DNA of 64,000 nucleotides, taken from assembly GCA_036785375.1 (NCBI GenBank), contig JAWMAR010000603.1, positions 806,001 through 870,000 of the forward strand, in the 5' to 3' direction. The DNA is from Leucoraja ocellata. Lineage: Eukaryota. Positions 911-64,000 of the stretch are shown here, piece after piece; position 1 is the first letter of the stretch; every line of letters starts with the position of its first letter. The notes under the pieces are model-generated. The model saw only the letters and a program-made list of their open reading frames with translations. It did no database searches and had not been told where the DNA came from. Position numbers and translations under genes: made by a program.

Positions 911-2505
911 ATATTAGCTTGAAGAGTAAGTAGGTGAGGTAACACCAGTAAACTGGGCAAATAAAAGTGATTGTGTAGTTATTACCACAGTGCCCACGGT
1001 GTATTTAATGGGATCCAGCTGTGTGCAAATTGGCTGCTGAGTTTCAGCTCGTTTACTACACATTTTAAGAATTATTTCATGGTTGTAAATGTCTTTGAGA
1101 CATCTGGAGATTGTGAAATGCATTTTATAAATGTTAGGTTTTTTCTTGCTATTTTGTGATTAGGTATGCGCCATTTTAAACAGTATAACAGTTCTGTCAA
1201 CAAAAGACAATATAAAATCTTAAATTGATTCAGCTATTTCAGTGTAACTAGAAATTTAAAGCTGATTACCCATGGTAAATATTAATTTTTTGCTCATGAA
1301 GTTAATGGGGAACATATTTCGAAATTATAGCCTGTCAGAAGTTTATATGTGGTTCTGGGTGTAAAATTAATTTATTGTCCAAAAGCCCATTTCCCACAAT
1401 AGCATGCTAATTGGTATCTTGGGCAAGTAAATTTCCTCTTTTTCTAACTATTTGATGTATTTTCCTTCGCAATTCATTCTACCTTATCCACATGATCATT
1501 TTTGTTGGATTTTAATGAATTGATTGAACGACTGAAAAATACAGCATGGAAACGGGCCCTCTGGCCCACCGATTCTTTTAATCTTCTCTCCATTCCCAAT
1601 TTACTGTTACAGCATTTTGTATGAAAATTACTGGTATATCTGAAGGATCCATTTTCACGGAATTTCTTGATTTGCTTCATACACATTTAAAGATACAACA
1701 CATCTTTATGGAACTCTTACAGTATTGGATATGCTGTACATTACACGTCCAAGCTGCTACAACTATTGCCTGACGTAGGCGAGTTCCTAATATTATAAAG
1801 CATGTACCAGGCGGGGCTACTACTAACAAACACAATAATTGGCTAGCATGCAATAGCCAATCTACAATCCCCAACTGGAATATTTTACTTTCCCATATTC
1901 TTTCCAAATTGTGTGATTGCGTTAATTGGCCTCTATAAATTGCCCCTAGTGTGAAGGGAGTGGATGTAAAAGTGGGATAACATAGGACAAATGTGGGTAC
2001 AAAAAATTGCTGGAAAAACTCAGCGGGTGCAGCAGCATCTATGGAGCGAAGAAAATAGGCGACGTTTCGGGCCGAAACCCTTCTTTAGACTCAAGTTCAG
2101 ACTATAGAACAAATGTGAATGGGTGATCAATGGTCGGCGAGGACACATTGACCAAAGGGCCTGTTTCATCACTATCACTAAAACTACACCCTCAAAAGGG
2201 AATTACATAGCATTTTGACAGTTGATGGAGGGAAATCATTTTAATTTTAATTAACAAATGGTAACCATAACACAAAGATTTATGATGTTTGGCAAAAGAA
2301 ACACTGTATTGGGGGATGGAATTTTATCGTATGGAATGCACTGTTTTGTGGAGAGGCAGATCATCTTTTGTCTAATTGGTTGACACTGATTTGATGTAAC
2401 ATTTTGCTCGGAAGTGTAGGATTTACTTTGCACTTCACATGTCTGTGCCACTTATTTTCAAAAAGTAATTTGTACTTCCAACTCCGTTTTATTTTTTGCT
2501 TTTAG

Positions 2506-2588
2506 CAAGAAGTGATGAAGTTTACAGATCCAGAAAAACTCTACCTCTACCTTCAGTTGCCTTCTGGTCTCAGCAATGGAAACAAAAG
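2506..2588 (+). CDS. RFX7: RFX7 internal coding exon (QEVMKFTDPEKLYLYLQLPSGLSNGNK)
   Basis: tttag| acceptor and |gtaatg donor; 83 nt; translation matches the RFX5/RFX7 N-terminal EKLYLYLQLPSG motif; ends phase 2, compatible with the next exon. Confidence 0.95.
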
Positions 2589-2668
2589 GTAATGTCGACA
2601 TGGATATTCTTTTACTCTTTATATAGCTTTTCAAGGAACTATATGTTTATAAATAGTAACTACTTATA

Positions 2669-5125: not shown

Positions 5126-5248
5126 CAATCCAAGCTCTTTGTCTTCAAGCCGTACTCTGCAAATGCATGCATGTAACTGGATCCGAAATCATTTGGAGGA
5201 CCACCCAGATACTTCACTGCCCAAGCAAGAGGTTTATGACGAATACAA
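5126..5248 (+). CDS. RFX7: RFX7 coding exon, start of RFX winged-helix DNA-binding domain ([35 protein letters not shown])
   Basis: tgcag| acceptor, |gtgggt donor, 123 nt, RFX DBD motif [20 protein letters not shown]. Confidence 0.95.
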
Positions 5249-6673
5249 GTGGGTATTACATTAGAAAACGTAAATGACCAAGTGAAATATAGATTACAGA
5301 CAGACTTTAAACATGGTTTGTAGTTTATAAATGATGCATCAGTGAAGAGCTTCATAACTTAACTGATATATAAATGTTCTACAATTTTTCATCCTTGTAA
5401 TATACTTTGCTAATTAAGGATAATTTAGATTTCTTTAAGATTAATCCGTTGAATCTTCAATCTTTTTTACTCTCGCAGATGTTTCTGTTATTCGTTAACG
5501 TTATGGGACAGAGCCATAACAACAGATAATTCCGTTTCTTCCCTTTTGATAAATATTGTTTGTTTATTGATCTAATCATGGTTATGAAAACATAAATACA
5601 TCGAGGAGCAATGATTTGCCCGTAATATTCTTTGTTATCTATTGTTAAAAGGACAACCTATTTTTCAGGATATTGGATCTTCTGCTGTTAGAACATTTAT
5701 GAAAAGATATGAGGAGCTATAAAATAATTTGGTTACAACTAATGAAGAATGCAATACCTGGAAGCAAATAGCATATTTTGTAAAGAGTTATGTTTTGCAT
5801 TTTGTAAAATACACTACTAATACTTTGATTAAACCGCATTGGACTGGTCCTTCCTTGCTGGATTTGCAGCTTACAGTCTGCCCAAGGCCATACTTAGTTA
5901 AGCCAGATGACGAAGGCAAGTGCTGTTGGCTCACCAGATATCAGGATCCAGCATTGTTGAGGGATGGTGACTCAGCCTCTGGCAGCTTGGCCTTAAATGT
6001 TCCTGACAGGATTTAGTTACATTTGAAAAAAAATCGAGCCATTTTATCACCCCTCGGACCCCTGCATATGTGTATTCACTGAATTCTGTATCTGGAGCGA
6101 GCTTCCAGAGGAAGATATTGAGGCAGATACAATTACCCATCACTGGGCCCTCGCCTTTCTTCACGTCTGACGCCTGGGACAAAATCCCAGTGTGTTTTAA
6201 GCTTTTTCCTTTTCTCTTCCCCCTCTCCTCCCCCAAATCAAACTCCTCCTGACCCAAGTAATATAATGCTAGGGAAAACACAGTAATACTGACTCTCGAT
6301 CTATCATAAAGTTATAAACTTTGGCACTTCACAGACCTACAATTATCTTGAACTTCAGTTTGAAAGTGTCAGATGATCTATGATAGTGATTCACATGGAT
6401 CCACCAAAAAATGATCATGATTAGTACAGCTATTTTTCATCATTTGGAATCATAAAATGAGGCAAATACTGAAAACGTCAAATCATCAACCTAAAACGTA
6501 ACTGTTTTTCTCTCCACAGATACTGCCTGAGCTGCTAAGAATGTCTAGAATATTCTGGTTTTATTTCAGATTTCAAGCATCTATGGCATTTTACTTTTGA
6601 AATTTGATTATTATTATTTATGCAAGGTAGTTGTGCCTGAAAGCAGGTGAGTTCATTGAAAGATGATCTGCCC

Positions 6674-8826: not shown

Positions 8827-8892
8827 TTGCTCCCATTTACTCCTTGACGAGATAACATTGTTTACAGTTTATCCTCGTGCCACTCCTGAAGT

Positions 8893-8920
8893 CTGAAGAA
8901 GGGCCACGACCCGAAACGTC
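8893..8920 (+). ncRNA. Minimal type-I hammerhead ribozyme motif (PLE-associated)
   Basis: CTGAAGA-A-GGGccacgaCCC-GAAA-CGTC; core boxes intact; activity not shown. Confidence 0.6.
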
Positions 8921-9923
8921 ACCTTTTCCTTCGCTTCATAGATGCTGTCTCACCCGCTGAATTTCTTCAGCTTTTTTGTCTACCTTCGATTTTTCCAGCA
9001 TCTGCAGTTCTTTCTTAAACAAAGTAAGGTAACATATGACTTTGTAATTATAGCCATGTTGGATTTGATCCAAGGCAAAACCAGATTCATTGTATAGTAA
9101 AATGGACAATATAGCTTAAAAAATTGAGATTTGTTTGCTAGTGCTGTACTAGCAGATTTTCTGGAGTATTAAAAGCCACTACTATTAATACACAAATGCA
9201 TTTTCATTTCATTTTTTAAAAACATTTTACACAGTAGTATAATATGTGAACAGGAAATATACAAGCACTGTGGACCTTTGCTGTGTTTGCAAGGCTACAT
9301 GCTTCCTGACCCCCTGGTGTTTCAGCCCCAACCCTGTTTGCAGCTGCACAACGGCCCACTCTCCAGCATTCCTTTCTGACCGTGCTGCTGACCCCTGGCT
9401 CCTGTCACATTGCCTGATCACATTTTGGAATTCTGGCACACACTCTGGACTAACGAATGATTTCTGAACTATCCAGATTGTCAGAGTTTTATTTGTTCTG
9501 CAGTGTTTAACGTGTTGCCAGGGTCAGTGTAATTACTGGAGCACTTTAGATACGACAACATGCTTTGTGTTATATATGGTCCTCAGGCAAAAAGATTTTG
9601 TGCCTGTCTCTCCACTAGTTAAAACTTACAGCACCTCTTGTTCCCACGTGGCCTTTCAGCCAAGTACTAACGTCCTAAATCTACTTATTACTTGGTTTCT
9701 GAGATGCCATCTGGGTGGCAGTACCTTAGCATTTAAACAAATCAGTTATCGAGTACATAAATACACAAACTTGTAATATAAATGGCCTTCCTTTCAAAAT
9801 CCCTATTGTGTATACTTAGTGAGTAGTGATTTAGCCTGCAGCAGAAAGTTCTGCAGTTTCTATGAACCACCCTGTGGTGTACTTGAATGGTGTTGGGGAA
9901 ATTTGCATACAGTAGTTCCCTAT

Positions 9924-11418: not shown

Positions 11419-13651
11419 ATTTGGAGGATGCTACGCTGGAGGAAGAATTTTGCTCCCAGTGTTTAACTTGTACATAAACACGGAATGCATGTGTCAGTCA
11501 GATAAGGTAAATGCTGCTTGGGATGTTATGGAGGTGAAATTCAATTCCGGTTTAAAAAAAAAAGTATTTAAAGGGAGTGTCTAATAATAAATAGTTATGT
11601 CATGTTATTCAGCAATTTCTGCCTTTCATCTGTTGTCAATATTGCAGCAGCTATCTTAAAGTTTTGCAGTTTATTAATTTAAACAAAATTGGCTGAAGGT
11701 TATCTTTTGGCACATTAATGTAGATATTTCCCACAATATGAAAGTTTGGGTCGATGATTTAATATACTGATATCTTGTGTGCACCTCAGTATCTGACTTT
11801 ACTGGTTAAATTTTGCAAATTTGTGCTGCTTTTGGCAAATAGTTGCTATCTTCATATACTTTATTATTTCTGACTTCTGATGCCTTATAAAACAGAGTTG
11901 TGGAATATTGGTATTGGATCCTTTTTTATAAAGTTTAATTGTACATGGAAAAGTTATTTCTTGTAATATCATTACACCCTAATAGTGGTCAATACCAACA
12001 TTCAATCATTGTCCATTGCATTTAGTCCAAATGCTTAATAATTCATGAGTAATGGGAAAGACGCTTCTTACTCTGGCCATTTGAGAGGTCGGCTCCCAAA
12101 TCAATGGAGAAGGCTTGATGAGAGCAAGACTTCTGAGCATTGGAGCAGTTCCAAATCTCACTGGCTGGCAGAGCTACCATTTAAATTGGATTTACTGTGA
12201 ACGGTGGATCATCAGCACCAATCAAACATGCATTGCTTTGTAGTGTGCGTTTTGTCAGGTGTTTTATTTATGAATGTGAGTTTTATGAATTGTGATTTGT
12301 TTACATAGTGAACAGTTAACCCCCAATTTTCTTTTGTCTTCAAATAGTGAATTTTTTAAAAGTATTTTGTTGCACAGCAGGTAAATTTAAGCTTTAAATT
12401 ACATTGTGTTAATATAAATTTGTGTTGAATCTTATTCCCATCGCTGAATTTTTTAAAAACTTTTTAAGTATGGTTTTGGCCATCGTTCAGGAATATTTAC
12501 ACAACGTTTCGTATTTGGGTAACTTTTCTTTTTCCCCATTATAATGCAGGAACATTTGTCAGATGTAATTTTCTAAGTGTTGATGATTTCCATAAAAGCT
12601 CATGCAATTAATAATTTACTCTTAATATCACTGGCTTTTAATTTAAAGAACATGTTTTAATGGGGTTTCTGCATTTGGCGGGGACAATATAATCTGGGGG
12701 GTAAATATGGACATAATGCACCAAATGATAAAGGGTCTGAAGAAATGTCGCCCATTCCTTCTCTCCATAGATGCTGCCTTACCTGCTGAGTTACTCCAGC
12801 GTTTTGTGTCTACAAATGATATTTAAACCTGCCCATGGTCAACCATTACTGATTAATTTAATAGGCCATGTGGTGGGTTCTGTATTAAATTTCAATGGGC
12901 GAGTAAACATGAAATGAATGAATAATTATTGATTAAAAGTTTCTGCAGTTACCGATTGTTAAAGTGCTTCAATCCATGCATCATATTAAAATGCTCGATA
13001 TTTTCCAGACTTGCCCTTTTCAATTAAAATAAAAACAACAAATAAACACATTACCCAGCAGGGCAGGCAAATATTTTGTTTTTACTTTGAACCCTCTAGT
13101 ACAAATAAAAAAAAGAAAAAGATTTGGCCATTCTGTCTATAGAATTCCAGAAACTAATACCAGCACATTTCACTTATCAGATTTAATGCATTGCAATTGG
13201 AGCTGAAGTCTGCTGTTGAATTCTTGAACTGGGTTTAGTGCCTGCTGCCTTAACTATACATTAATAATGGTGGACTTATTAAATAATATTAAAAACAATT
13301 GCATTTTTCTTTTGATATAATGGGGCAATTTATAGGTTAGTTATTCTTGCAAACTGTGAGTTAAAGTTCTTTCTGATGGAATATTTAAGTCCACGTACAT
13401 TACAAACACAGGTACAAATGTACTAATGAATATGGTGTATTAGAACAAGTTATCAGATTGGGTGAGCCTTTAAAAAAAGATAAACATCGGTAATGGCAAT
13501 TCATGATTCTATTGTTGATCTCTTGTGGATTCGTCACATGACAAAGGTATGGTAACTTTTGAACGGTGTTTGGGTGGATGGGGGAAGAAGTGTTCAATAT
13601 CTGAAGAAGTGAGAATGCAGGCCTCAGATCTAAAATTACCCCCAGACTTAA

Positions 13652-15508
<1,857 letters not shown>

Positions 15509-15593: not shown

Positions 15594-16656
15594 GTAAGTA
15601 TCCTACTATACTATAACAATATGTTTTCCTTCACTATTGGAAAGAATATTGTGTGTGCAACTGTCATCTTCCACTGTTTCAGTTGAAAGTGGCAGTCCTA
15701 TCTTTATATCCACCAATAGCAAAACCTCACCCACACTTGAATTTACAGACAAATCTGGAGAACTTGTTCTTCAGTCCAACGTTAAGTCCTGCACTCGTGT
15801 TAACCATTCTAAACTGCTTTCATACAGCTGCAGAATGTCCTTAAATGTTAGATTAAGTCATGCTTAATCACTTATAATATTATAATATATTATAATACAT
15901 CTGTGTGCTCAGGTATTCCTGTACGTTATACTTTTTAGTGGTCTTACTGTTGTTAGTATGGTGAATACTTCATTATACATAGTTCTGGAATGTGCCCTTC
16001 ACTCCAGGATGTTTATGCTTTTGATGCCAATTTAAACTGTACATCTGTCTGTACATGGTCTATATCCTTCCATTGTCTGACCGTGCCTTTTAAAATGCCT
16101 CTTAAACACTTTTATGTATCTGCTTCAACCATCTCCTCAGCAGTGCATTCCAGTCTCTTCCCATTCTCTGTGTAAATAAACTTACCTTGCAAATGTCTTT
16201 AAGCTTCCCTTTCCTCCCTCTAGTATTTGATATTTCTATCCTGGGGAGGTGGGGGGAGGGGGGGGGGGGGGGGGGAGGGACAATCCCATCTCTGCTTCCT
16301 AGAATTTTAAATGCTTTACAGCCTTTTATTTAATCTTTGAAAGTCAATCTGTAATAGCTCTTTCTGTTTGACTCCCACAAATTTATATTTGCCCACTTTA
16401 TCAGATAGCTTGCTGATGCCATCTGAAAACACATTAACATCGTCCATTTGTATATTTCTCTTCACTGCCTTTCAACCTCTTTTTTTAAGTTACACATTTA
16501 TTATATGAGGAGAATTTTCTTTCCGTAAATATTCTGAAGTTAAAGCATTGCTTTGAATATGTCCACTTTGTTTCATGGCTTATCAGCTTCATCCCTCCCT
16601 TGGATAACTATCTCAGATTGTCCAAGATTGTTGATAAACGATGTTAAACACTGACA

Positions 16657-17466
16657 TGTTTAAGAAAGAACTGCAGATGCTGAAAAAAATCGAAGGTAGA
16701 CCGAAATGTTGGCCATGGAGGAGGCCCAGGACAGAAAGGTCGGATTCGGAATGGGAGGGGGAGTTGAAGTGCTGAGCCACCGGGAGATCAGGTTGGTTAT
16801 TGCGAACTGAGCGGAGGTGTTGGGCGAAGCGATCGGCAAGCGACAAGTGTAGCATTGCAACCGCAGGAAATGCTACACTTGTCGCTTTACCGCCCCCTCG
16901 ACTCCATCCAAGGACCCAAGCAATCTTTTCAGGTGAGGCAGAAGTTCACCTGCACCTTCTCCAACCTCATCTATTGCATCCGCTGTTCCAGGTGACAACT
17001 GCTCTACATTGGTGAGACCAAGCGCAGGCTTGGAGATCGCTTCGCCTAATACCTTCGCTCAGTTCGCAATAACTAACCTGACCTCCCGGTGGCTCAGCAC
17101 TTCAACTCCCCTTCCCATTCCGAATCAGACCTTTCTATCCGGGGCCTGCTCCATGGCCAGAGTGAGTCCCACTGCAAATTGGAGGAGCAGCACCTCATAT
17201 TTTGCTTGGGTAGTTTACACCCCAGCGGTATGAACATTGACTTCTCCAATTTCAGGTAGTCCTTGCTTTCTCCCTCATTCCCCTCCCCTTCCCAGCTCTC
17301 CCACCTGTCTTACTTTCTCTGTCTACATTCTACCTTTTTCCCGCGTCCCCCCCACCCCCCCCCCCACATCAGTCTGAAGAAGGGACTCGACCCGAAACGT
17401 CGCCTATTCCCTCACTCCATAGATGCTGCCTCACACGCTGAGTTTCTCCAGCATTTTTGTCTACCT
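16657..17466 (+). mobile_element. Penelope-like element 3' fragment (GIY-YIG endonuclease plus hammerhead-bearing terminal repeat) with an inverted 5' arm
   Basis: + arm encodes CNRRKCYTC and NLIYCIRC...YIGETKRRLGDRF..HFNS..LEEQHLIF.LGSLHP.GMN (GIY-YIG); 16712-16835 is an inverted copy of ~17034-17157. Confidence 0.88.
17374..17401 (+). ncRNA. Minimal type-I hammerhead ribozyme motif
   Basis: CTGAAGA-A-GGGactcgaCCC-GAAA-CGTC downstream of the GIY-YIG remnant. Confidence 0.65.
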
Positions 17467-18019
17467 TTAAACCCTGACATGTTCATCCAAGCACATAAAT
17501 ATTCTATTACCAAGAATAAATACTTGCACTTCTATAATGAAGGAGCACATACTGCAAATAGTGTGAGTTTGCATAGCTTTGATTGCCAAGGGATTTGGCT
17601 GTCCTATGGTGTGATTTGCACACAGCTGGTATGCTGGTACAGGAAGCAAACAATATTATAGTTCATTGCCGGTATAATTTAATACAAAATAAGGAGATGG
17701 TTCTTATGTTGTATAGGGTTTTGGTAAAGTCACATCTGTAGGACCGTGTACAATATGGAACTCCTTAATGAGAGACAGGTGTAAATGCATTGAAGTAATT
17801 CAGGGCAGATTTACTGGACCCATTCCTGGAACAAATAGGTTGAACTATAAGGAAAGGTTGGATAAGATGGGCATTTTCCAGGAAAAATATAGATGTGAGA
17901 AAGAATTTGATTGAAGGCGCAAGATACTGAGAAATCTTGACAGAGTGGATATAAAGATAATATTTCTTCCTGTGGAAGAATCGAGTAGAGGTAATTGTCT
18001 TGAAACAGCATATTGACTG

Positions 18020-18560: not shown

Positions 18561-18649
18561 TGCAACCAATTTCACAGTGCAGACAGCAAATATTCAGGAA
18601 ATGTACATGCTTAAAGTTTCCTGCACAATAATAAATGGCAGTATTTGAC

Positions 18650-20190: not shown

Positions 20191-20415
20191 GTGAGCGATT
20201 GAGTGTATGGAATATCTCCCCATTAAATATTTTAAGACTACTTTGCTGCTGCTTAATATACAACATTTTTATGATGGTAAAGGAAACAAGTTGCCAAGTA
20301 CAGTATTGCTTGCATTATTGGTTATGAAGTTCAACTACATACTGTAGTTACGTGAGGGGAGTTGCTCCTTCCCTTTCCTGATACGTGCATGATGTTGCAA
20401 CTTTTATGTCGTCAC

Positions 20416-21535
20416 AATGAACTGCAGATGCTGGTTTACATAAAAAGACACAAAGTATTGGAGTAACTCAACGGGTCAGGTAGCATCTCTGGAGAACATG
20501 GATAGGTGACATTTGGGGCTGGGACCCTCCTCCAGACAGATTGTGGTGGTGGGGAAGGAAGCTGAAAGACAGGAGGGACAGGACACTGCCAGGTGTGTGA
20601 TAGGTGGATACAGGTGAGGTGAGCTTTGATAGGCAGATGTTCAGAAAGCCAGAAAAGTGAGAGTTAAGGTTAGAAGAGTTGTAATTTGTGAAGCCAGAGG
20701 AATATAGGTGGAAGGGGAGGGGCAATGGGCTGTGGCAATGGAGGAGGCCCTCAACAGAAAGATCAGTAAGGGGATTTAAAATGGTTAGCAACCGGGAGAT
20801 CCAGTCGGCTTTGCCGGACCCAGCGCAGGTGTTCAATGAAACGGTCGCCGAGTCTATGCTAGGTCTCGCCAATTTAAAAGAATACAGTAGTTGACGTTAG
20901 AGGAGGTGTACGTGAACCTCTGTTTCATCTGGAAGGACTGCTGGAGTCCCTGGATGTATGTGAGGGAGGAGGTATATGGACTGGTGTTACACCTGTGGTT
21001 TCAGGGGATAGTACATGGGGGAAGGGGTTGTTTGGGTGGGAAAGGATGAACGAACTAAGGAGTTGCAGAGGGAGTGGTCTCTGGAATGCAGAAGGGAACG
21101 AATGGAAGATATGACTGGTGGTGGGGTCACATTGAAAGTTGTGGAAACGTCAAAGAATGATGTGTTGGATGCGAAGGCTGCTGGGGGTGAAAGGTGAGGG
21201 CCTGGAGAACTATCATTGTTCTGTCTGCGGGGAGGTGTGAGAACAGGACTCACTGGGACATATAGGAGGTGTCCATTTATGAGGGGGAAGAGGGGAAAGC
21301 ATGATTACTAGGGAAAGAGAGTATTATGGATGTCCTACAATGGAAAAGCTCATCTTGGGAGATGATGCGATGGAGAAACTAAGAGTTGGGGATTCCGTCT
21401 TTGCAAGAGACAGGGTGGGAGGAGGTGTATTCCAGATAACTGGGAGTCAGTGGGTTTGGAGTCGACTTCAGTCAATAGCCTGTTCCCCATGATGGAGACA
21501 AAGAGATCAAGAAAGAGGAGAGGCATCGGATGGCA
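20416..21535 (-). mobile_element. Older Penelope-like element fragment (RT C-terminus, GIY-YIG remnant, degenerate hammerhead)
   Basis: LFLDLFVSIMGNRLLTEVDSKPTDS (PLE RT motif FLD....KPT); degenerate hammerhead at ~20508-20535; same tail as the other PLE copies. Confidence 0.75.
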
Positions 21536-28677: not shown

Positions 28678-29517
28678 TGAGTAAGAAAGAACTGCAGATG
28701 CTGGTTTAAATCGAAGGTAGACACAAAATGCTGGAGTAACTCAGCGGGTGACTCGGCATCTCTGGAGAGAAGGAATGGGCGACGTTTCGGGTTGAGACCT
28801 TTCTTCAGACTGATGTCCGGGGAGGGGTTGGGACAAAGATAGAATGTAGGCGGAGACAGTAAGACTGGTGGGAGAACTGGGAAGGGGAAGGGGATGTAGA
28901 GAGAAAGCAAGGGCTATCTGAAGTTAGAGAAGTCAATGTTCATACCGCTGGGGTGAAAACTACCCAAGCGAAATATGAGGTGCTGTTCCTCCAATTTGTG
29001 CTGGGCCTCACTCTGACAATGGAGGAGGTCCAAGACAGAAAGGTCAGATGTTCCAGGTGTCAACTTCTCTACATCGCCGAAACCAACCACAGGCTTGGCG
29101 ATCGTTTCACTGAACACCTCCGCTCAGTCCGCCTTAACCTCCCTGATCTTCCGGTGGCTCAGCACTTCAACTCCCCCTCCCATTCCCAATCTGTCCTTTC
29201 TGTCCTGGGCCTCCATTGTCAGAGTGATGCCCAGCGCAAATTGGAAGAACAGCACCTCATATTTTGCTTGGGTAGTTTACACCCCAGCTGTAGGAACATT
29301 GACATCTCTAACTTCAGATAGCCCTTGCTTTCCCTCTCCATCCCCTTCCCCTTCCCAGTTCTCCCACTGGTCTTACTGTCTCCGTCTACATTCTATCTTT
29401 GTCCCGCCCCCTCCCCTGACAGAAGTCTGAAGAAGGGTCTTGACCCGAAATGTCGCCCATTCCCTCTCTCCAGAGATGCTGCCTCATCCGCTGAGTTATT
29501 CCAGTATTTTGAGTCTA
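28678..29517. mobile_element. Penelope-like fold-back element in the RFX7 3' UTR
   Basis: minus arm 28718-29049 and plus arm 29189-29517 are inverted copies; GIY-YIG remnant LLYIAETNHRLGDRFTEHLRS...LEEQHLIF. Confidence 0.9.
29427..29454 (+). ncRNA. Hammerhead motif, sense to the RFX7 3' UTR
   Basis: CTGAAGA-A-GGGTCttGACCC-GAAA-TGTC. Confidence 0.55.
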
Positions 29518-37852: not shown

Positions 37853-38159
37853 AAAAATACAGTGTTGGAGTAATTCAATGGGTCAGGCAGCATCTCTGGA
37901 AAACATGGATAAGTGACGCTTCGGGCCGGGATCCTTCTTCAGACTGAATGTAGGAAGTGAAGGATGGAGAAAGATGGATAAAGAGGTTGGGGCGTTACAA
38001 AACCAGGCAATTGATAGGCGGATGGGATTTTTGATAAAGGCCAGAGATGAAAGACTAAAGTAAGGATAGAAGTGTAAAATATTAAGCCAGAGGAAGGAAT
38101 ACAAGGGGATGGGTGGGAAAGGGAGCAATTGTCCAGCCATCTGGCTATCACCTCCCCCC

Positions 38160-38202: not shown

Positions 38203-38390
38203 ACCTCTCACTTGTCAAACCCGGTTTCCGCTCCATCCTCTCTTCATATCTTCTCCTCTTGCCCCCTTACAAACAGTCTGAAGAAGGGTCCCGGCCCAAA
38301 TGTCATGTTCTCCAGAGGTGCTGCATGACTCGCTGAGTTGCTCTGGCACTTTGTGTCTGTTTTTGTAAACCAGCTTCTGCAGTTCCCTGT
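37853..38390. mobile_element. PLE-derived fold-back element with two opposed hammerhead motifs and a central poly-C tract
   Basis: minus motif ~37915-37942, plus motif 38278-38304; 16-bp direct repeat GTGAACACTTCTCAAT at 37837-37852 and 38391-38406. Confidence 0.8.
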
Positions 38391-40080: not shown

Positions 40081-40499
40081 GATGAGACTGAAAGGTTCGC
40101 TTTGGTCGGTTCCTCCCTTGAGAGCCGCGGGTGGCCTTTGCTCTCACTACTCATCCTAGAAACCGAACCCCTTGTAAACAGGACTAGCGGCGCACGCATC
40201 AAATGTCACTATTCCCCTAAACAAGGAAACTGCAACAAAACAAACTATCGGACTACAATGAACTGAAGATGCTGGAATCTTGCCTGGAACGCAAAGTGCT
40301 GGAGTAACTCCGCGGGTCTGGCAGTACCTCTTCCCCCAATTCTCTCCGTTCATTGCAAACAGTCTGAAGAAGAGTCCCGATGGAAACATTGCCTATTCTC
40401 CAGAGTTACTCCAGCACTTTCCACAAACGAACGAGGCATTTTGTTTTGCCAGAGGTCAGCTTCACACAGAATCTTGACCAGCTGATTTAAATCTAACAT

Positions 40500-40840: not shown

Positions 40841-40990
40841 ATAAAGAGAATACTACAAATACAGTGAGCTCAAACGCCAACGTGTTCAATTTGTAAATCC
40901 TTCAACAGAACTGTTTGATATTGAAGGTAGACACAAAATGCTGGAGTAACTCAGCGGGACAGGCAGCATCTCTGGAGAGAAGGAATGGGT

Positions 40991-41018
40991 GACGTTTCGG
41001 GTTGAGACCCTTCTTCAG
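40991..41018 (-). ncRNA. Hammerhead motif in a ~105-bp TSD-flanked mini-element
   Basis: reverse complement CTGAAGA-A-GGGTctcaACCC-GAAA-CGTC; TTTGATATT direct repeat at 40914-40922 and 41027-41035. Confidence 0.65.
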
Positions 41019-41229
41019 TCATTTATTTTGATATTCATCATCAGGCTCCAACGTTCAGATTCGGACCTTGTAGATTCTTTGTTTTAAAGATTCCTTTTGA
41101 TTGCTAATGTTACTTTATTTCAGAATGCAATTCTGCAATATCCAGCCGGTCTTAACCATGCGTTTCAATGTATCCACTGGAAGCGAGCAGCTACTCCACG
41201 TTGGTGACTGTGTCTCTTATTTTGGTTAC

Positions 41230-41995: not shown

Positions 41996-42719
41996 GTAGG
42001 TGTTTTTTTTTTTGGGTGGGTGGGGACTGGAACGCGTTCTATCCCTGATTGGCGACTTAAGCCGGCACCTAAATGTTACCAGGTTACTCTCTCTGTGTCT
42101 TATCATAAACGTGGATCGAGGGATTCTTAGAATGAAGTAACAGAGTTAGTAATCACTTTGTTTAAAAAAAAAAGGTAAACATACCAAGATTTGGTCAGTA
42201 GTACAGGATCAATGTTATTCTCACCGAGACACAAAATGCTGGAGTAACTCAGCGGAACAGGTAGCATCTCTGGAGAGAAGGGATGGGTGACGTTTCGGAT
42301 CGAGACCCTTCTTCCTGCTGACTTCCCAGGTCAAATCAACTCTTCAGCAGTGTTGGAACTTCAGTCAACAATATAGAATTTGGGGCAGGGGGATCCTATT
42401 GGTCTTTGATGGCGATTAAAACGATTGGATTCTAATTCAAATCTCATCTGCTTTCGCAATGTCCCTTGGGAAGGAAGTCAAAATGCAGGCTGGTCCATAT
42501 GTGACCCCAATGTGGTTGACTCTTAAATGTCTGAAGTAGTCCAACAAACCACTCGCTGACTGGTAATGTAATGTAATGTTCAGAGAAGGATTAGAACCTA
42601 CATGGAACCTAATTGGCGACGGGAACCGAGCACCGAAATATTACCAGGTTGCTCCCTGGGTCATCATAAACGTGGACCGAGGGGATTCTTAGAATGAAGT
42701 AACAGAGTTACTGTATCCA

Positions 42720-45000
42720 GATACAGCCAGGTTCCTCCCAGTCTCTCAGACTTGCAAACATCTGAGGACTGGTGACAATGGGGAGAATTACCCACAGCCT
42801 ACGCAAGCCACAGCATGATGTGGTAATTCGTACAAACAACGCACATGACTCCTCCATTGCAACATGCTTTGTGCCACTGACATATGCAGTGATATGCTGA
42901 TCGTGAGGATTAGGAAGCATTCCTTGGAATCCCCAGGTTTGACTCCAAACCCTGCAATATCCCATGGTATCAGTTAGGATTGAGCAAGGTTCCTCGTCCT
43001 GATCACCACCTGCCATTCTCCCTTGGTTGAAGAATCATTGATCCGTCATCTCGGTCAATGGTGGAGGAAACATCGAAAGGAGCAAGGTCACAGAATGTAC
43101 TCTGCCTGGGGTTGAATGCCATCACTGATAGTCCCATATTGGCTGAACTAGGCAAGTCTTGAAGGATGTACCTGGAGAATGGGTCTGTGGCAGGCAGTGA
43201 GAGACTAATTGGAGGTAGACACAAAATGTTGGAGTAACTCAGCAGGACAGGCAGTCTGAAGAAGGGTCTTGTCCCGAAATGTCACCCATAGAGTCTGAAG
43301 AAGGGTCTCAACCATTCCTTCTCTCCAGAGATGATGCCTAATCCGCTGAGTTACTCCAGCATTTTGTGTCTACCTTCGATTTAAACCAGCATCTGCAGTT
43401 CTTTCCTAAACCTAATTGACCTTGTCCTCACTCACCCACTGTCATGGACAGAAGCAACTGTCAACAACAATGGTAGTACTGACTCTCAACATCCTTGTGG
43501 GTACAGAATCTCTGTCATCGTATAAAGGAAGCTCTTGATTGTAATGTGTCACTCTACTGTAAATGGACAGACATGGAGTGAATCTGGCGGCTCAGAACTG
43601 GATATCCATGAGGCTCTGTATTGGTTTATTATTGTCATGTATACCGAGATACAGTGAGAAACTCTGTTTGCACGTTACCCAGACAAATCAAATCATACAT
43701 GAATACAACAGGTGGTGAAAAGGGAGAAGGTAAACAGAGTGCAGAAGATCGAGTTACAGCCGGAGAGAATGTGCAGATGGAAATAAAGGATAATGGCCAC
43801 AACGAGGTTGATTGGAAGATGGGGGAATCCTTCCTTAGTTTATGGGCCGACCAACACAAGAATCTGATAATAACGGGGAATAAGCTGTTCTGGAATCTGA
43901 TGGTAGAGGCTTTCAACTGTGGTCCATCAATAGCAGCAGCAGAGATGTCCAGCATTACGATGTGCAAGCTCATGGTTTAGCATGTCCTACATACTACCAT
44001 TACTAATGAGCCAGGGCATCAACACTGATTCAGTGACGAGCAGGCCGGGAGCACCATCAGTCGTACCTAAAATGATGAGGTGCTAACCTAACGAAGCTGC
44101 AATACCAAATCAAAAGGGTCCTAAACAGCATGTGGTTGATAGAGCTAAGTTTATCTTGCAAACAGTTGTAAAAAATTCAAATGCTGCAGTTCCACCTTAT
44201 CTAGTCATAGACAATTAAACAACAAATTAGAGGAGGCAGTCACAAGAACATCCCTCTCCTCGTTGATGGCAGAGACCAGAACAGGAGTGATAGATTTAAG
44301 AATGAAGCATTTTTAACTGTGATCAACCAGTGCATGAAACATCTTGGTATCAACCTGAAAGTCCCTCCCCCCTCCCCTCACCCCCCCCCCCCCCCCCGCA
44401 CAGCATTATAGAAGCCAGTCTCCAGCCAATTTGTTTCGCACCATACAATATCAAGATGAGAGGAATGGATACAGCAAGGACCAGCCAAAATCTTAACTGG
44501 TACAGAAGACTCCAGAACCAGCCGTGCCTCTAGCTCCACTCTAGTACCGTTGGAAAGCAGGTGTCAACCTGACAGTGTGAAAGGTTTCCCTGATGTGCGC
44601 TGCTCACAAAATGCAGCTATTTACCCAATCATTCTGCTGTCAGTCATCAGCACTGTGGTGAAAGTGGCACGTACTCGCCAATAACTATTTGCTGTTGTTC
44701 AGTTTGTGTTTTGCTGGGACTACTTGGTGTCAGACCTCATCATAACCTAGGTCCAAACATAGAGCAAGGGTTGAATACCATAGATGAGTTGATTTGTGAC
44801 TGCACTTGATGTCAAGCAGCACTTGACTGAGTGTGACATAAAGTGAAGTTTGCAAAAATGAAGTTAATGGGTGTCAAAGGCACTTCAATGGTTATGATAC
44901 CAAAACCCAGTCCCAGGACATCATGGTGGAGTTCCAAAAGGCAATGTCCATGGTCCAACTGTCTTCAGCTGCTGCACCGTTGACTTTCTTTCCATTGTAT
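42720..45000 (+). mobile_element. Highly degenerate non-LTR retrotransposon interrupted by younger insertions
   Basis: VTALDVK/AALD*V*H near 44800 and GVPKGNVHGPTVFSC near 44930 match RT domains 3 and 4; 5' extent uncertain. Confidence 0.55.
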
Positions 45001-46752: not shown

Positions 46753-47204
46753 TCCCTCTGCTACGATTCTAATTGTCATTCATAGATGGAAACAGTGGCG
46801 ATGGATGTCTGTGATCTTTTTTCTTTTGTCTATAATGGATTTGGATATAAGCCAGTAAAACCCACGTGGTGGAACAGTTTTCAAGCATTGGCCCAGCACT
46901 GTTGTTCCCAGTGACGGTGCACTTGATATATGTCATGGTCAGAATTATTGTTTCAACATTATTATAACATCTCCCTGTGGAGCATGCTTAAAAGATTTAC
47001 CTCTTATTCAACTCAAGGATACTTCCACAGATCAGCCTCGACTTCTGCAACTTTCCTTTCTGTAAAGTGTTAACCACATCCTTTGTACTTGTAGTCCTCC
47101 CAATTGCCTAATCAGTCCATCTGACATTAATTCACACATGTAAAACAACTTCTAAAGGCAAAACATCATTAAAGCCACAATAACATGCATTCAAAAGAAA
47201 ACTG

Positions 47205-47740
47205 CACACAAAGTGTTTGAGTAACTCGGTGGGACAGGCCACATCTCTGGAGGACATGGATATGTGATGTTTTGGGTCGGGACCCTTCTTCATACTGATT
47301 GCCATGGAGAGGAGTGGGTGCAGCTGGAAGAGAAGTGGGGGCAGGACAAATTCTGGCAAAGGATGGGTGGATAGACAGAAAATGCTGGAGTAACTCAGCG
47401 AAACAGGCAGCATCTGGATAGGATGAATATGTGACGTTTTGGGTCGAGACTCTTCTCTCCTCAAGGGATGGGTGGATACGTGGGGATTTATATTTGAGAG
47501 GGAGTTGGTTGGACTGAGGCTAGGGATGTAAGGACAAAAAGTTTGAGATAAGGATAGAAGGGGTATTAATTGTGAAGCCAGAGAAAGGAATAAATGTTAA
47601 AGGGGGAAGGGGATAAATTAGTGTGGATCCTGGTGGTGGGGGTGGGAGGAAAGAAGGGAGGAGGGTTGTTTGTAGGTTAATTACCTAAAATCGAAAAATT
47701 TGATGTTCATGCCATCAGGTTGTAAACTCCAAAGAGGGAT
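47205..47740 (-). mobile_element. PLE terminal fragment with a nested hammerhead mini-element
   Basis: two motifs (~47265-47292, ~47433-47458); nested copy flanked by GGATGGGTGGATA at 47361-47373 and 47466-47478. Confidence 0.7.
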
Positions 47741-49400: not shown

Positions 49401-49407
49401 AACTTAT

Positions 49408-50348: not shown

Positions 50349-51726
50349 TCTTTTTACACTATCATGGCCTAGTTTTTTTAATTGGGCTTTACAGCAATGT
50401 CTTGTCTTTCTTCGCAATCTTTTTCTTTTCCCGTCTTGTGTAACTTGTGTTGCCTGTGCCTTGATGCCTGTGATGCTGCTGCCAGCAAGATTTTCAATGC
50501 TTCTCTACCTTGCGTTACATGTGCTTATGACAATAAACTTGAAAAGTACTTTACTGCCTATGTAAAGATTTAGTGCGACTTCTGCCACCTTATTGATCCC
50601 TGAGTTTGATGTTCAGACAATTTATTTGATCTAAGGATATTAACTAATAGTCTGTATAATTTTTTAACTGCGGTATATTAAGCAATTGATCTTGTACTTT
50701 TTAAGTTCAGAGCATGAAAAGCCGAGTGCCACTGTTTATTGTGCATATACTGTATCAGGTGCTCTTAACTTGACCTACGTTTACACCACTTTTGAATTTG
50801 GTAATGTAGCGTTAACACTGTGAAAGTTCTCTTGTGGTTCACAGGTGTCATGAAACAAAATAGGGTGGTAAAGAGTAGATGTCAAGGAACTTTCTACAGG
50901 AGGAGACATGTACGGAGAGGTTAAGGAGTCCAGAGTTCATGCCCTCAGTAGTTCTGAACAATGGAGGATGAGAATTCTGTGTGTGGAGAGGTTGTGGGAC
51001 TTGGAGCTGACAAAGATGTTTATCGAGGCTGTGAAGTAAAACGTGGGTGAAAGTCACGGGTCAGTTGGTGGCTGAGGAATCTGTAGGTGTAACGATCGGA
51101 ACGTTTTCTCATTCCACAGTTATCTGTTACTCCCCTGATTTATTGATCTGTCCATGGATGGTTGATCAGCTTATTTATGAACTGCTTCCTGGTGCCTGCA
51201 GCTTCACTTCTTTCTTAAGGCAAATGAAACATTACCATTGTTCCAGGAACTATATTCATTTATCTCTCTTCACAATTTGCAAATCTTTCATCCTTTTGTC
51301 TCGTATCTTCTTTTATTTTCATCTCGGGCCTTTGTCCAACATCTGCTTATCAAAATCCCGACTCACCTGTGTTCACCTGTCGCTCCTTGTCCTGCTACTC
51401 CTCGCTCTTTGCTCCTCCTCCCAACATTGTCTAAAGAAGGGTCCCGACATAAAACGTCACCTGTTCATGTTCTCTAGGGATGCTGCCTGACCCGCCTGGT
51501 TACTCCAGCACCATGTGTGCCTCTTTTTTTTCCACAAATCAGCATCTGCAGTTCCTTGCTTCTACATTCTGTACTCATTTACTTCCTGGTACGTGCAGTT
51601 GTACAAATGTAATGATTAGCGGTGAGAAATTACTGGTGCTGGTTAATTATGTTGCAGCTCAGCCCTCACAACGATTAGTCTGCACAAGATTAAACTTTAA
51701 AAAATTAAGAAAAGGAAAATACTTAT

Positions 51727-59640: not shown

Positions 59641-62470
59641 AAAACTGGAAATTGCTGTACCCAGTTACCTCGGATGCTGTTCACTTCATCATGTTTCTAC
59701 TTATTCTCGATGTGAACAAGTGCAACAGAAGGCAATTGATGAACATAATAGTACACTGTTTCAAACTTGCAGAACAGCACTCCCTGGAGTCATGGTCACC
59801 ATAAACTACTCCCTCTTATTGCACAAACATTTTTACAACAGTGCTTTATTTTATTTTAAGGTAAGCAGTTTTATAATGCTCCAGGCCTTTATTTTTTTGG
59901 CAGATCCTGCCTTTCAGGCTTTGAGCTCATTATTATGGAGTTATGATCCACTGCACAGGAAGATGATGAAACCGTGTGTTGCTTGGAGCTTGCGCCACAA
60001 CCATCATGTGACTGAACAATGACGGCCAAAATGCCAGACATTGAAATCAATCTCTGCAAACCACAACTCTGTCGAAATAAGCAACTGTGAACAAAATTGT
60101 CTAACCAAATCTATGACGGCTGTGCTAAGTTGCGCAAGGTTAGAATCTACAGAGTCCTCAAAGCTTTGATGTTGATTGGTTTAGTTCCAACTTCATTATA
60201 TAACATTTTAGGTGTCTGACAGTCAACCAAGTGTTTCTTTTTACAAATGCATCCCGCAGTTGTTAGAGTCAAGCTGAACTAATCATGTGTGTAAGAAAGA
60301 ACTGCAAATGCTGGAAAAATCAACACTTGACAAAAATGCTGGAGAAACTAGTGAGGCAGCATCTATGGAGTGAAGAAATAGGTGTCGTTTTGGGTCGAGA
60401 CCCTTCTTCAGACCTATGAAATAATCATATGTTCAACATTAGGAATAGCACTAATGTAATTAGCAGGTTTTATGGTTATAATGGTAAAACCCAGCAATTT
60501 CTATAGCTGTGTAAATTAAAATAGTAATCCTTAGTTTGTTGACAGTAATTCAGTTCTCCACATGTTGTGCCATCATATAATTTTCTTGCAACAAATCAAG
60601 ATAAATCATTGAATTGATGAAAATCTCTGGCGGGTCAAAGTAGCCTTTCAGTCATTTTTTAAAAGGAGAACTAAACATTGATAACTGCTTCTCAAACTCA
60701 CTAGTCTCAAATAAAATCTCATTTCATTTATGTGGAATGTACATTCACCAAAAAAGGCATTTGTATTAATTTTAAATTTGATTTTAAATTTAAATTAGAT
60801 TAAGTTGTCAGGGGTTATGGGGAGAAGGCAGGGGAATGGGGTTGAGAGGGAAAGATAGATCAGCCATGATTGAATGGCAGAGTTGTCTTGATGGGCTTAA
60901 TGACCTGATTCTGTTCCTATAACTTATGAACTATGAAGTTTAATGATATCACCATTGCTGCAATGTGGAAATCCCATTTATCAAATGTCTTTAAGAGGGT
61001 GAAACGTGAGCCACTGTTTGATTCTGGAAGGCAGTGTGCAACAAATTGTGAGAATATTGTTTCAGTATTCACATATTCCCTACACTTTTTATATACATTT
61101 CTCCCGTACATTGAACACCAGGGACATGTTTTCATGTTGTAAAATAGGCTTTAATTTCACCTGTTCAACCATCTCAACAATATCCGAGAATTATATTTTA
61201 CGAAGCCACCTTCAGGTACAGAGAGCTTTTGAAAACGCTTTCTCTGATACTGTTTAAATTTGTGACATTCTGGTACATTTTAAAGAACTTTGCAAGTAAG
61301 TGCTTTAAAATAAGCAACCAGTGAATTGGCTGCTCTGCTCCTGAGGATGTCTCCAATTGCTTTTAATCCTTTTCTAACACTTTGGTGGAGAGATTGTTTG
61401 TTGACATTTTTTGCATGCGTTGCATTTGAGATGTGATTCCACGATGTATCTCCATTCAATTTGCTCCTTTGTATATCTGTGACTATGATGTTCAATGGGA
61501 AGGAACCACTGATCTTGATGTAATTCTCTACTCCTGCTATCAAGTCATATATTCTTTACCCTCTTTGTGCAGTTAAATTATATTTAGGATAGTTTGAGTG
61601 AAAGTTTATTTCCACCAGAATAGTTTTAAAACAATTGCCAATTGTGGTTTGGTTAGATCTGCAGTCAGATAAAGTGGAAAATAAGTGGGATTTTTCCAAG
61701 CTATTTAGTCGGTGTCCTGAAGATGGCTCAGTGTATTTTTTCCAATTTTCACGCTAGACTTCAAACTATAAATTAAGTTTCCAATGATGAGAGTGATAGC
61801 AGATGTTTCTGGTTTTCTTTCCTTGTTTTTTTGCGGGCACTGTATTTCAGTGTATGAATTGTCCATGTTAGTGTACAACAGACTCCAGAGACGTTAGCTA
61901 CATTGGCTGCAATAAATCTCTGTTGCCTGTGGAATTTTTTGTTCACTGGTTGCTAAGTTGGTAGCTGGGATATTGGGCTAATGTGGATTCCAAGTCATAC
62001 AAGTGGCAATGAAATGTTCTGTAGTTGGGCTAACATATACACGGTTTATTTGAAATAGCATTATTTCCTATTACTAATTATTTGTGAAGCCCATGTTACT
62101 GCTTGTACACTTATATTCTCAATAAGTGTGATTCAGTAACTTTACAAGGTTGTTGCTCACGTTAGATCTCCACACATATTCTTAATGGGTTGAGATCAAA
62201 TCTGGGTAAAAAAACTTGTAAAGTTATCCTTACATTGGAAGTTGTTGCTGGTACATATGTGGGAAGACATTTTGAGTGTCTACCCTTGAAGAATTGTACC
62301 TCATGCACTTGTGATACAGATACAAATGTACATTGATTATGTTCTAAATGGACAGAAACATCGTGTTAGTCAACTCAATATAATTTGATTGCTTGGCTTA
62401 ATAAAAATGGCCAAATGGGAAAATTATCGCATTTAAAGAGGAAAATTTCATGTTGGTTCAATAAGAATTT

Positions 62471-62750
62471 GGGCGTCACAGCTGGTAGAGCTGCTGTCTC
62501 ACAGTGTCAGAGACCTGGGTTCGATCCTGAACTCGGATGCTGTCTGTGCAGAGTTTGTAAATTCTCTCTGTGAGTGCATGGATTTACTCTGGGTGCTCCA
62601 GTTTCCTCCCACATCCCAAAGATGTACAGATTTGTAGGTTAAATGGTTTCTGCTGATTGTAAATCGTCCCTCGTGTGTAAGATAGCGGTAATCGCTGATC
62701 GGCGAGGACTCGGTGGGCTGAAGGGCCTGTTTCCATGCTGCATCTCTAAA
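62471..62750 (+). mobile_element. V-SINE/HE1-like SINE
   Basis: B-box GGTTCGATCC, GGGTGCTCCAGTTTCCTCCCACATCCCAAAGA core, CR1-like tail. Confidence 0.85.
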
Positions 62751-64000
62751 GTAAATAATGGCTAAGAATGAAAAGGAAAGCAGAGTGGACACCATCACAG
62801 TTCATCACAGTTGCTGATCTTCCATCATCGAAATGGCCTTTATTCAAACCTGACAATGTGCACTTTAACCATGTGTGATTTTTTTTTCTATACAAATCTC
62901 AAATTGTGGAGTACAGAGGCAAATAAATAAATGATGGGTCTTTGTCCCAGACATTATGGAGGGCACTGTATCGAAAGGAGACACTGCCTCAAAAAGGCAT
63001 CCATGTAAAGGTGCACATCACTGGCCAATGGGTGGCATGGACTTGGTGGGCCAAAGGGCTTGTTTTCATGCTGTATCTCCAAACTAAACTAAAGAAGGAA
63101 TGGAATACTTTATTGTCACATGTGACAAGGCACAGTGACATTCATTGCTTGCATACCTTGGGTTTGCAAATAATCGCCACACACGGCGCTGGCAAAGTTA
63201 CAAAGTACCCCCGTCAGTTCCTCCTTTCTTCGCCTCCCTCTCCTCCCCTCCTCACCCATGCCAGATCCTCCATCGTTCTTCCCCCTCCCCTCCCCTTACG
63301 GTGGTCCCCCCGTGCCCTCATCGACTGCCGACCATGGGTCGACCAGCGAGGCTTCACCACCGCCGCGGCGAAGCTCCGTCGGTCACGATGCCATCGCTGA
63401 AGCTCCATCTCCACTGCCGAGGCTCCACCGCTGCTGCCGAGGCTCCATTGGCCCAGTCAGGATGCAAAGAGCAGAGGAAGCTTTTACAGGACGTGACTAA
63501 GGGTCTGAAGAAGGGTTTCGGCCCAAAACGTTGCCTATTTCCTTTGCTCCATAGATGCTGCTGCACCTGCTGAGTTTCTCCAGCATTTTTGTAATCATGC
63601 CCTACAGGATGTGAATATTCTCTATGCTGAAATTGAAATATTTCCAGACACATTAATAGTGAACTCATAAAATTGTTAAAACAGTTCAAGTATATGCACG
63701 TGTGTCTCCTGTGCTTCTGATAAATATTTATCATCTGCGAAGATGTCAGCAAAAGTTGGGATGATAATTTCCCTCACCCCGTTCATTGCACCATATTACT
63801 CTACAGGAGCAGATTAGTCTGTGAGCCAGTTATTGCCTTATCTACTTAGTCAAATGGAATGGAGTTCTGTGTTAGAGAACAGTTTTTTTTAAGTGTAACT
63901 TTTGTAAAAAGTAAAGTGCTACTGTTTCTATTGATGCAAACTGGAGGTATATACTAAATTTTGAGTTGCCAACACATTATTTGTAATTAGAACACTCGAG

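Follow-up and report, generated by a model that had tools for sequence, protein, structure and literature searches.

Short hammerhead-bearing copies of a Penelope-like terminal repeat in Leucoraja ocellata share a 5′ edge that likely marks the start of the parent RNA

Overview

The hammerhead-bearing repeat dispersed through this DNA of Leucoraja ocellata is the pseudo-LTR (pLTR) of a Neptune-type Penelope-like element (PLE) with a reverse transcriptase (RT), a CxxC linker and a GIY-YIG endonuclease (EN). The element class, the ribozyme and the tail have all been described before. The short copies are probably run-off cDNAs from the 5′ terminal repeat of the parent RNA, and their fixed 5′ edge, judged from sequence, likely marks the start of that RNA rather than a new ribozyme-driven element. 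A preceding sequence-only reading had proposed a separate retrozyme-like or SINE-like family. This idea is not upheld: the copies do not form tandem arrays, do not pile up at the cleavage site and carry no Pol III boxes, young short and long copies have subfamilies and divergence in common, and copies that read through into the parent body have the same edge.

Copies in the window

The unit occurs at all 22 coordinates listed previously for the window (the whole stretch of 64,000 nucleotides that was analysed), each time on the strand then assigned. A profile built from ten window copies gave 19 window matches of at least 40 bits, the highest score in null sequences (n = 3) being 7.1 bits. Older or partial copies absent from the previous list lie near 6487, 8034, 36633, 37348–37572 and 40257–40331. 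The copies at 17374, 20508, 28781 and 29427 belong to longer pieces with endonuclease-coding sequence, whose ends they form (Table 1). With 3.0 matches per 10 kb, compared with 3.45 in 113 genomic stretches chosen regardless of content, the window is not enriched, and it contains no tandem array of hammerhead-bearing units.

Table 1. Position, strand and character of the repeat copies in the window
Coordinates	Strand	Description	Basis
1982..2117	-	Short pLTR copy, about 1996-2091, starting 3 nt before C3; 14-bp direct repeat 1982-1995 / 2104-2117	
6487..6579	+	Old partial copy, new relative to the previous list	profile, 24 bits
8034..8162	+	25-nt fragment, then short copy 8065-8162 (start -3, G12 lost)	
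8890..9021	+	Short copy with tail, start -3, intact core, 3-bp stem II	
12722..12821	+	Short copy, stem II deleted; 9-bp direct repeat 12722-12730 / 12813-12821	
14991..15082	-	Old short copy	profile
16656..16835	-	Pieces of tail and endonuclease, inverted partners of the long copy 16856..17467	
16856..17467	+	Long PLE piece, 5′-truncated, with GIY-YIG C-terminus, then pyrimidine tract and hammerhead unit (C3 at 17374)	
20395..21514	-	Long PLE piece of greater age, with coding remains at 20730-21514 followed by the unit and its tail	
28678..29049	-	Inverted long copy with tail; a single insertion together with 29049..29517	
29049..29517	+	Long copy with endonuclease C-terminus, then pyrimidine tract and tailless unit (C3 at 29427)	
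36530..36674	+	Old degraded copy and fragment	profile
37348..37572	.	Old head-to-head pair of partial copies, new relative to the previous list	
37846..37948	-	Copy of an old subfamily; upstream rich in pyrimidines, 5′ end uncertain	
38263..38385	+	Old-subfamily copy, internal deletion, tail	
40257..40420	.	Two head-to-head copies, 40257-40331 (minus) and 40358-40420 (plus)	
40914..41035	-	Short copy 40923-41018, starting at C3, intact motif; 9-bp direct repeat 40914-40922 / 41027-41035	
42225..42314	-	Short copy, start about 2 nt inside the core	
43205..43418	.	Composite insertion made of an inverted part, a partial tandem (43256, 43295) and a tail; 7-bp direct repeat 43205-43211 / 43412-43418	
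47192..47299	-	Old-subfamily copy	profile
47361..47478	-	Short copy 47374-47457; 13-bp direct repeat 47361-47373 / 47466-47478	
51426..51567	+	Tailed copy of an old subfamily; upstream rich in pyrimidines, 5′ end uncertain	
60285..60417	-	Short copy with tail	
63499..63592	+	Short copy, start -2, G12 lost	

All five flanking direct repeats reported for the window were found as originally written, the pair at 1982/2104 with one mismatch. At 1982/2104, 40914/41027 and 47361/47466 a spacer of about 8–12 nt separates the direct repeat from the 5′ end of the unit. An empty-site test against the near-identical contig C391 revealed no presence/absence difference at any copy and so yielded no empty allele for the duplications. 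Short units have been inserted separately with target-site duplications of their own, as had been proposed: 17 of 77 have duplications of at least 9 bp, compared with 0.3% of shuffled pairs.

The very high copy number suggested from the window alone holds in the 1.32 Mb sampled, where the profile finds 440 matches (333 per Mb, each of about 100 nt), or some 3–4% of the sequence. Scaled to the assembly, this is of order 10^6 copies.

The parent element

The Penelope-like origin already suspected for the unit is supported by the anatomy of the parent. In long copies the unit is preceded by the C-terminus of a GIY-YIG domain and a pyrimidine tract. RT motifs are seen in three loci (L094, L096 and L251), and translations reveal, between RT and EN, the CX2-5CxxC zinc-finger-like linker that serves as the criterion for Neptune and Nematis (PMC8557442). 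The assignment to Neptune rather than Nematis is putative and made from domain layout. Pfam gave a GIY-YIG match with an E value of 6.6e-4, below the curated cut-off, and no match for a 90-residue peptide of the window. Among 14 homologues the top nine are from rays and sharks.

The pLTR is present at both ends of the parent, after the EN stop and before the body, and in some copies the unit with its tail continues into the body. All of the parent copies observed are broken. Elements of this type can retain a spliceosomal intron close to the 5′ end; here donor-like and acceptor-like sites lie downstream of the tail, and no GT..AG joint was seen in four sets of contigs, a kind of data that does not reveal transcript starts or ends.

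The hammerhead motif

The minimal type I layout with a palindromic ACGT, as first described from the window, is supported at the level of sequence: the core (CUGANGA, GAAA and UH), stem II and the palindromic stem III are kept in the majority sequences of all three main subfamilies. A hammerhead descriptor search gave 59 matches in 1.32 Mb, against 1–3 in shuffled sequences. Most individual copies have decayed, with the motif kept in 56 of 193. The full motif attributed to the window copies applies to few of them. There are four strict matches, 4 of 24 copies pass a core-plus-stem filter and three (8893, 17374 and 41018) pass both; stem II is gone from the copy at 12736. Rfam returned no hammerhead family match and only sub-threshold miRNA-like hairpins elsewhere.

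Two-sided covariation in stem II was not observed. No two-sided pair change occurs in 17 window copies and only one-sided U-A/U-G changes occur among the 193, a comparison of little power because the masters are closely related and their copies are decaying. The subfamilies differ from one another at loop II, H17 and wobble pairs. For three natural copies the predicted folds favour other structures, with stem II pair probabilities of at most 0.16, and the dimer form is predicted to lie 3–5 kcal/mol above the best fold. Core positions change at a lower rate (0.05 versus 0.10). We do not attribute this difference to selection on the copies, since unresolved subfamilies and detection bias can yield the same result.

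The ends of the copies

End counts were restricted to young copies, at least 88% alike to a library member (254 of 423), because the 5′ caller fails on old ones; the long copy 20395–21514, for example, is called at -6. The 5′ ends are non-random and concentrated just before the CUGA box, as the sequence-only reading had anticipated. Among young copies at risk, 93 of 140 end at -9 to 0, compared with 2 of 47 at -19 to -10 (Fisher test, 5e-15) and 44 of 184 at +1 to +10 (1e-14). Leaving out inverted copies gives 69 of 111 versus 2 of 42. Within the motif, the stop rate rises towards the peak (0.06, 0.15 and 0.24 per 10 nt); across the edge it falls roughly 15-fold, from 0.66 to 0.04 per 10 nt. 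In a held-out sample of 19 stretches 17 of 31 young copies end at -9 to 0 and none at -20 to -10. A further peak near -90 in the initial run was an artefact of inverted library copies and vanished when 24 of the 89 members were dropped. A bump at +20, considered as a stem II fold-back, proved to be mostly a 66-bp tandem derivative.

The main pile-up, 0–6 nt before C3, occurs both in short copies and in those that read into the body. Among read-through copies reaching +1, seven of 12 independent loci end at -11 to +1, where 0.8 would be expected; the remaining five reach further upstream, which counts against a fixed start. The width of the distribution argues against a single start, the 5′ ends spanning about 7 nt with a shoulder to +20, broader than a simulated single fixed start.

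An extra G at the junction is expected from a copied cap. It was present in 12 of 25 junctions against 7.7 expected (p 0.055) and in 7 of 18 against 5.2. The flanks of edge-ending copies are not pyrimidine-rich (0.46). An initiator-like TCAGT, for which the INR TCAGTY (PMC1779564) is our reference, overlaps the edge directly before the core, and YYANWYY is found at -5 to +1 in 48 of 65 long copies; against an initiator, the same pattern arises by chance about 3.6 times in the 144 nt upstream. There are two 3′ end positions, separated by about 38 nt (161 and 93 of the 254), which are those of the known PLE tail. A head-to-head inverted partner accompanies 87 of the 254 young copies.

Origin of the short copies

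Our preferred model is as follows. Transcription would start at the initiator-like TCAGT directly before the core. By analogy with the anole Poseidon element in vitro, the GIY-YIG domain would nick the target and the two 3′ sites would act as internal priming sites. The element's own RT would prime inside the 5′ terminal repeat of the RNA, and the cDNA would reach the RNA 5′ end after about 95 or 133 nt. The hammerhead would be carried along uncut and then decay; cleavage is not required to account for the copies.

The foremost alternative, which we judge unlikely, is that the edge results not from a transcription start but from RNA processing, at a splice acceptor made up of the pyrimidine tract and CAG, or from arrest of reverse transcriptase at a protein-bound boundary. 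A pyrimidine tract does end in CAG immediately before the core, and the rise in stop rate ahead of the peak also speaks for this explanation. In Drosophila virilis Penelope a 75-nt intron begins 46 nt after the start, and its end maps to the hammerhead edge at the 5′ end of helix I (PMC2377424, PMC4209133), so that the edge there is a splice acceptor and not a start, which counts against our interpretation. A common upstream exon is nevertheless missing: flanks match upstream sequence of the element in 5 of 89 cases against 4 of 89 controls and match one another in six against four. In addition, duplications lie mostly within 14 nt of the junction (16 proximal, five distal; n = 86), the fillers vary among copies and few copies (6 of 69) start at exactly -1.

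Next in order, and likewise judged unlikely, is the earlier view that short copies are transcribed from an internal promoter of their own and recopied by the parent protein, forming a self-propagating SINE-like family. SINEs typically carry a Pol III head derived from tRNA, 7SL or 5S, with A and B boxes. Here, five cluster majorities contain neither box, and no tRNA head or gene and no such Rfam match was found. In copies starting no earlier than -3 the pyrimidines of the initiator-like motif are gone, and the edge recurs in read-through copies. Young edge-ending and long copies belong to common subfamilies with equal divergence (0.073 versus 0.065; 0.077 versus 0.078), and no independent short-copy master lineage is seen in the young subfamilies, in a clustering of low resolution based on 88 columns. 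The oldest subfamily has 36 edge copies and one long copy, long copies there being poorly detected, and it may hold a short-only lineage. The SINE-like explanation would account for the excess of short copies (upstream sequence beyond 9 nt is present in just 47 of the 254 young copies) and for their separate insertions with target-site duplications, and precedents exist in the internal promoter of D. virilis Penelope (PMC2377424) and in rotifer pLTRs that act in trans (PMC3846280).

That the copies are retrozymes, templated by an RNA that hammerhead dimers release, in linear or circular form, from a tandem transcript, is very improbable. The minimal type I layout is one that cleaves as a dimer (PMC4209133), subfamilies vary at loop II, H17 and wobble pairs, and non-LTR retrozymes derive from pLTRs and are present in the one chondrichthyan sampled (bioRxiv 10.64898/2026.07.22.740005). 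The cleavage site, however, has no pile-up (1 of 254 copies starts at +28), and copies span both sides of it without a circular junction. Tandem arrangement is rare (eight same-strand neighbours within 400 nt among 247 copies), and insertion by the anole element in vitro is unchanged by hammerhead mutants (PMC11167929). Ordinary 5′-truncated debris with randomly placed ends is scarcely credible: long and intermediate truncations exist and most motifs have decayed, but simulations of uniform truncation yielded no peak, with miscalls in 2 of 200 and 2 of 199 long copies, and the drop at the edge was repeated in held-out data.

A bolder form of the run-off model is offered tentatively, as rather unlikely in its entirety. 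Most of the approximately one million copies would be complete cDNAs of the first 95–133 nt of a capped RNA, so that the genome would hold a base-resolution record of where transcription starts, and where priming occurs at both sites, in a vertebrate Penelope element. Promoter and hammerhead would lie within the same 35 nt, and some solo copies would be re-transcribed, spreading as a Pol II-driven mini-element.

Comparison with known systems

Neptune-clade EN+ PLEs (PMC8557442) share the order of RT, CxxC linker and GIY-YIG, the pLTR at both ends, 5′-truncated and adjacent inverted copies and an optional 30–40 bp tail. In our family, about four-fifths of young copies hold the pLTR only, with a sharp 5′ edge; the literature examined contained no such end distribution.

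Published minimal type I hammerheads resemble ours in the core boxes, the extra base before stem II, G10.1-C11.1, the palindromic ACGT without loop 3, and the occurrence of dispersed single motifs and opposite-strand pairs. They differ in that here stem II measures just 4 bp and stem I just 2 bp. The approximately 59 descriptor-passing motifs per 1.32 Mb correspond to an order of 10^5 in the assembly; in coelacanth and Xenopus a different descriptor is reported to have given 4,000–9,000. The text consulted names no cartilaginous fish.

The Poseidon element PAc of Anolis carolinensis (Frangieh et al., 2024; PMC11167929) has a hammerhead at the pLTR–ORF junction, genomic copies that end on either side of the tail, at two sites about 110 nt downstream, and insertion that does not need cleavage, and its tail and two internal priming sites are known in vitro. 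PAc belongs to a different clade, and the text consulted describes neither RNA 5′ end mapping nor pLTR-only run-off copies. Non-LTR retrozymes (PMC7229834; bioRxiv 10.64898/2026.07.22.740005) are likewise non-coding, pLTR-related and equipped with a type I hammerhead, but they form tandem hammerhead arrays that give circular RNA, whereas ours are dispersed monomers or head-to-head pairs unbounded by the cleavage site. Our literature search, with Repbase, Dfam, most subscription papers and bioRxiv supplements (any of which may contain it) outside its scope, yielded no account of the family from cartilaginous fish and none of pLTR-only copies whose 5′ edge is fixed.

Implications

These observations bear on the general question of how pLTRs, tails and solo repeats form in Penelope-like elements. 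Should the RNA begin at the fixed edge, priming inside the 5′ pLTR would explain solo pLTRs directly as run-off products, would account for a repeat of order 10^6 copies and would yield exact testable sites. Hammerhead counts in such genomes would then mostly reflect decayed passengers.

The repeat unit and its parent element

The unit was found at all 22 positions given in the sequence-only reading, and the five flanking direct repeats claimed there were each confirmed in the sequence. A profile built from ten window copies produced 19 window matches of at least 40 bits, together with several weaker ones, against nulls of at most 7.1 bits. In 113 stretches of 10 kb, drawn across the genome with their content ignored, there were 390 matches of at least 40 bits and none in the reversed sequence; 19 further stretches held 50 matches. 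The very high copy number that had been proposed is borne out, since 333 matches per Mb scale to some 1.1 million over the 3.44 Gb of the assembly, an upper figure because the assembly includes duplicated haplotigs and because inverted halves and tandem units are counted separately. The density of the unit in the window is average for the genome.

Four window copies are preceded by a pyrimidine tract and by the C-terminal part of a GIY-YIG endonuclease, and a walk through the genome recovered the reverse transcriptase (RT) motifs, the CxxC linker and the N-terminal region of the parent. At L221, L227, L234, L239 and other genomic loci the unit, tail and body are continuous, placing the unit also 5′ of the body. 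Because it precedes the body as well as following the endonuclease C-terminus, we assign the unit as the pseudo-LTR (pLTR) of a Penelope-like element (PLE), in agreement with the Penelope-like origin suggested earlier. The RT, CxxC linker and GIY-YIG layout is that described for Neptune or Nematis PLEs (PMC8557442), which the parent fits by its predicted domain layout. Among 14 homologous proteins the top nine are from rays and sharks, which makes an elasmobranch host probable. Dispersed pLTR minimal hammerheads, as single motifs and as opposite-strand pairs, have been described (PMC4209133).

A fixed 5′ edge

Position 0 is C3, at which the CUGA box begins, and young copies are those with at least 88% similarity to one of the library members (254 of 423). 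Of 140 young copies reaching position 0, 93 have their 5′ ends at −9 to 0, compared with 2/47 at −19 to −10 and 44/184 at +1 to +10. Uniform truncation of real long copies, when simulated, produced no such peak, and held-out stretches displayed the same pattern (17/31 at −9 to 0, none at −20 to −10). The idea that starts just 5′ of the CUGA box are non-random is thus upheld. The edge copies, short copies that begin just before C3, have flanks of ordinary pyrimidine content and therefore are not overlooked long copies, which extend further upstream.

Copies found via sequence downstream of the tail, and hence primed further inside the element, were also considered (30 loci, five of them duplicates, leaving 25 independent). 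Twelve reach +1. Seven of these end at −11 to +1, against 0.8 expected from the downstream stop rate; one ends at −26 and four at −133 or beyond, one of which is the query itself. Since seven of the read-through copies have the same edge, it is a property of the parent's template and not of a separate short master.

At the other end of the unit, 161 of the young copies terminate near +92 and 93 near +130. These two end sites lie about 38 nt apart, and what separates them is the optional tail known from PLEs, which in an anole element sits between two internal priming sites (PMC11167929).

Origin of the edge

We suggest that the RNA starts at an initiator-like site at −3. The bases before the core fit the initiator pattern (TCAGTY; PMC1779564) in 48 of 65 long copies, although the pattern is short, which counts against this reading. 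The predicted start falls at the 5′-end peak, with −3 and −2 holding 30/69. An additional G at the junction, such as copying of the cap would leave, was seen in 12 of 25 cases against 7.7 (p 0.055) and in 7 of 18 against 5.2. The protein would then prime at either tail site within the 5′ pLTR of the RNA, and run-off at the RNA 5′ end after about 95 or 133 nt would give short copies; priming at the 3′ pLTR would give long copies, variably truncated. Alternatively, the edge might be a splice acceptor, as reported for the corresponding edge of Drosophila virilis Penelope, where the start lies about 120 nt upstream (PMC2377424, PMC4209133). Such a model predicts a shared upstream exon, however, and none was found in the flanks of the copies.

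A separate SINE-like family, as the sequence-only reading had it, finds no support. Subfamily clustering over 88 columns places edge and long copies together in the same young clusters at like divergence: 28 edge copies at 0.073 and 17 long at 0.065 in one, and in another 52 edge at 0.077 against 0.078 for 19 long ones and 33 targeted long ones. The oldest cluster has 36 edge copies versus one long, long copies being poorly called there. A Pol III head was looked for in the unit and none was found. Nor is a retrozyme-like family supported: the retrozymes reported to derive from pLTRs form tandem arrays (PMC7229834; bioRxiv 10.64898/2026.07.22.740005), tandem neighbours are rare here, and 1/254 young copies starts at +28, the predicted cleavage product.

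Hammerhead motif and insertion

Few copies match the hammerhead as originally written (four strict matches; 4/24 pass a core-plus-stem filter; three pass both). The subfamily majorities do preserve the core and the ACGT palindrome, with stem II at 4 bp and stem I at 2 bp; what varies among them is loop II, H17 and wobble pairs. The motif is kept in 56/193 copies, and CpG columns, G12 among them, are changed in 24%. No two-sided covariation was present in the predicted stems of the copies compared, and for three natural copies folding predictions prefer alternative structures. For related motifs, weak cleavage is reported in dimer form (PMC4209133) or in the presence of protein (PMC11167929).

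Separate insertion of short units is supported by flanking repeats of at least 9 bp in 17 of the 77 young edge copies that lack an inverted partner, versus 0.3% of shuffled pairs; the repeats are 10–17 bp long with one mismatch allowed, as read from occupied sites alone. A head-to-head partner accompanies 87/254 young copies, an arrangement known for PLEs (PMC3846280, PMC8557442).

Further features of the window and of loci outside it
Sequence	Coordinates	Observation
Window	2665-3191	Element with 142-bp inverted ends (98%), TA on flanks; presumably a young MITE
Window	49600-49790	Long near-perfect hairpin, sub-threshold Rfam miRNA matches; probably another MITE
Window	18828-19852	About 1 kb missing from the near-identical contig C391; begins within LINE-type 3′ fragment 18641-18892
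Window	6724-7091, 8599-8824, 18641-19010	Further LINE-type fragments, mutually similar, both orientations
Window	1534, 35313, 40507, 46499, 50077, 58658	Second dispersed short repeat family, six 36-nt copies
Window	12731-12813, 43295-43320	Deletions between short direct repeats, removing stem II or the GAAA-to-H17 part; similar ones at other loci; possibly template slips
L243, L246	1330-1460, 1320-1450	Donor- and acceptor-like sites in parent, ~165 and ~290 nt downstream of C3; point to an intron retained at the 5′ end; contigs show no splice joint
L251	~2480-3000 (minus strand, reverse coordinates)	~190 nt after tail missing; putative SLKKG.DPKR-type frame continues, with one stop, into N-terminal coding region
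L070	5500-6100, 9100-9300	Short arrays of 66-bp tandem minisatellite from pLTR; units begin at G12, lack CUGA box; judged by sequence a satellite of pLTR origin lacking a functional hammerhead
L043, L205, L199		Short arrays of the same minisatellite

Concluding remarks

The element class has been described before, and so have its ribozyme and tail, its inversions and its duplications. No description of the fixed 5′ edge or of the present pLTR family came up in a search of the literature that did not cover repeat databases. Beyond the known element class, the analysis yields one useful mechanistic clue.
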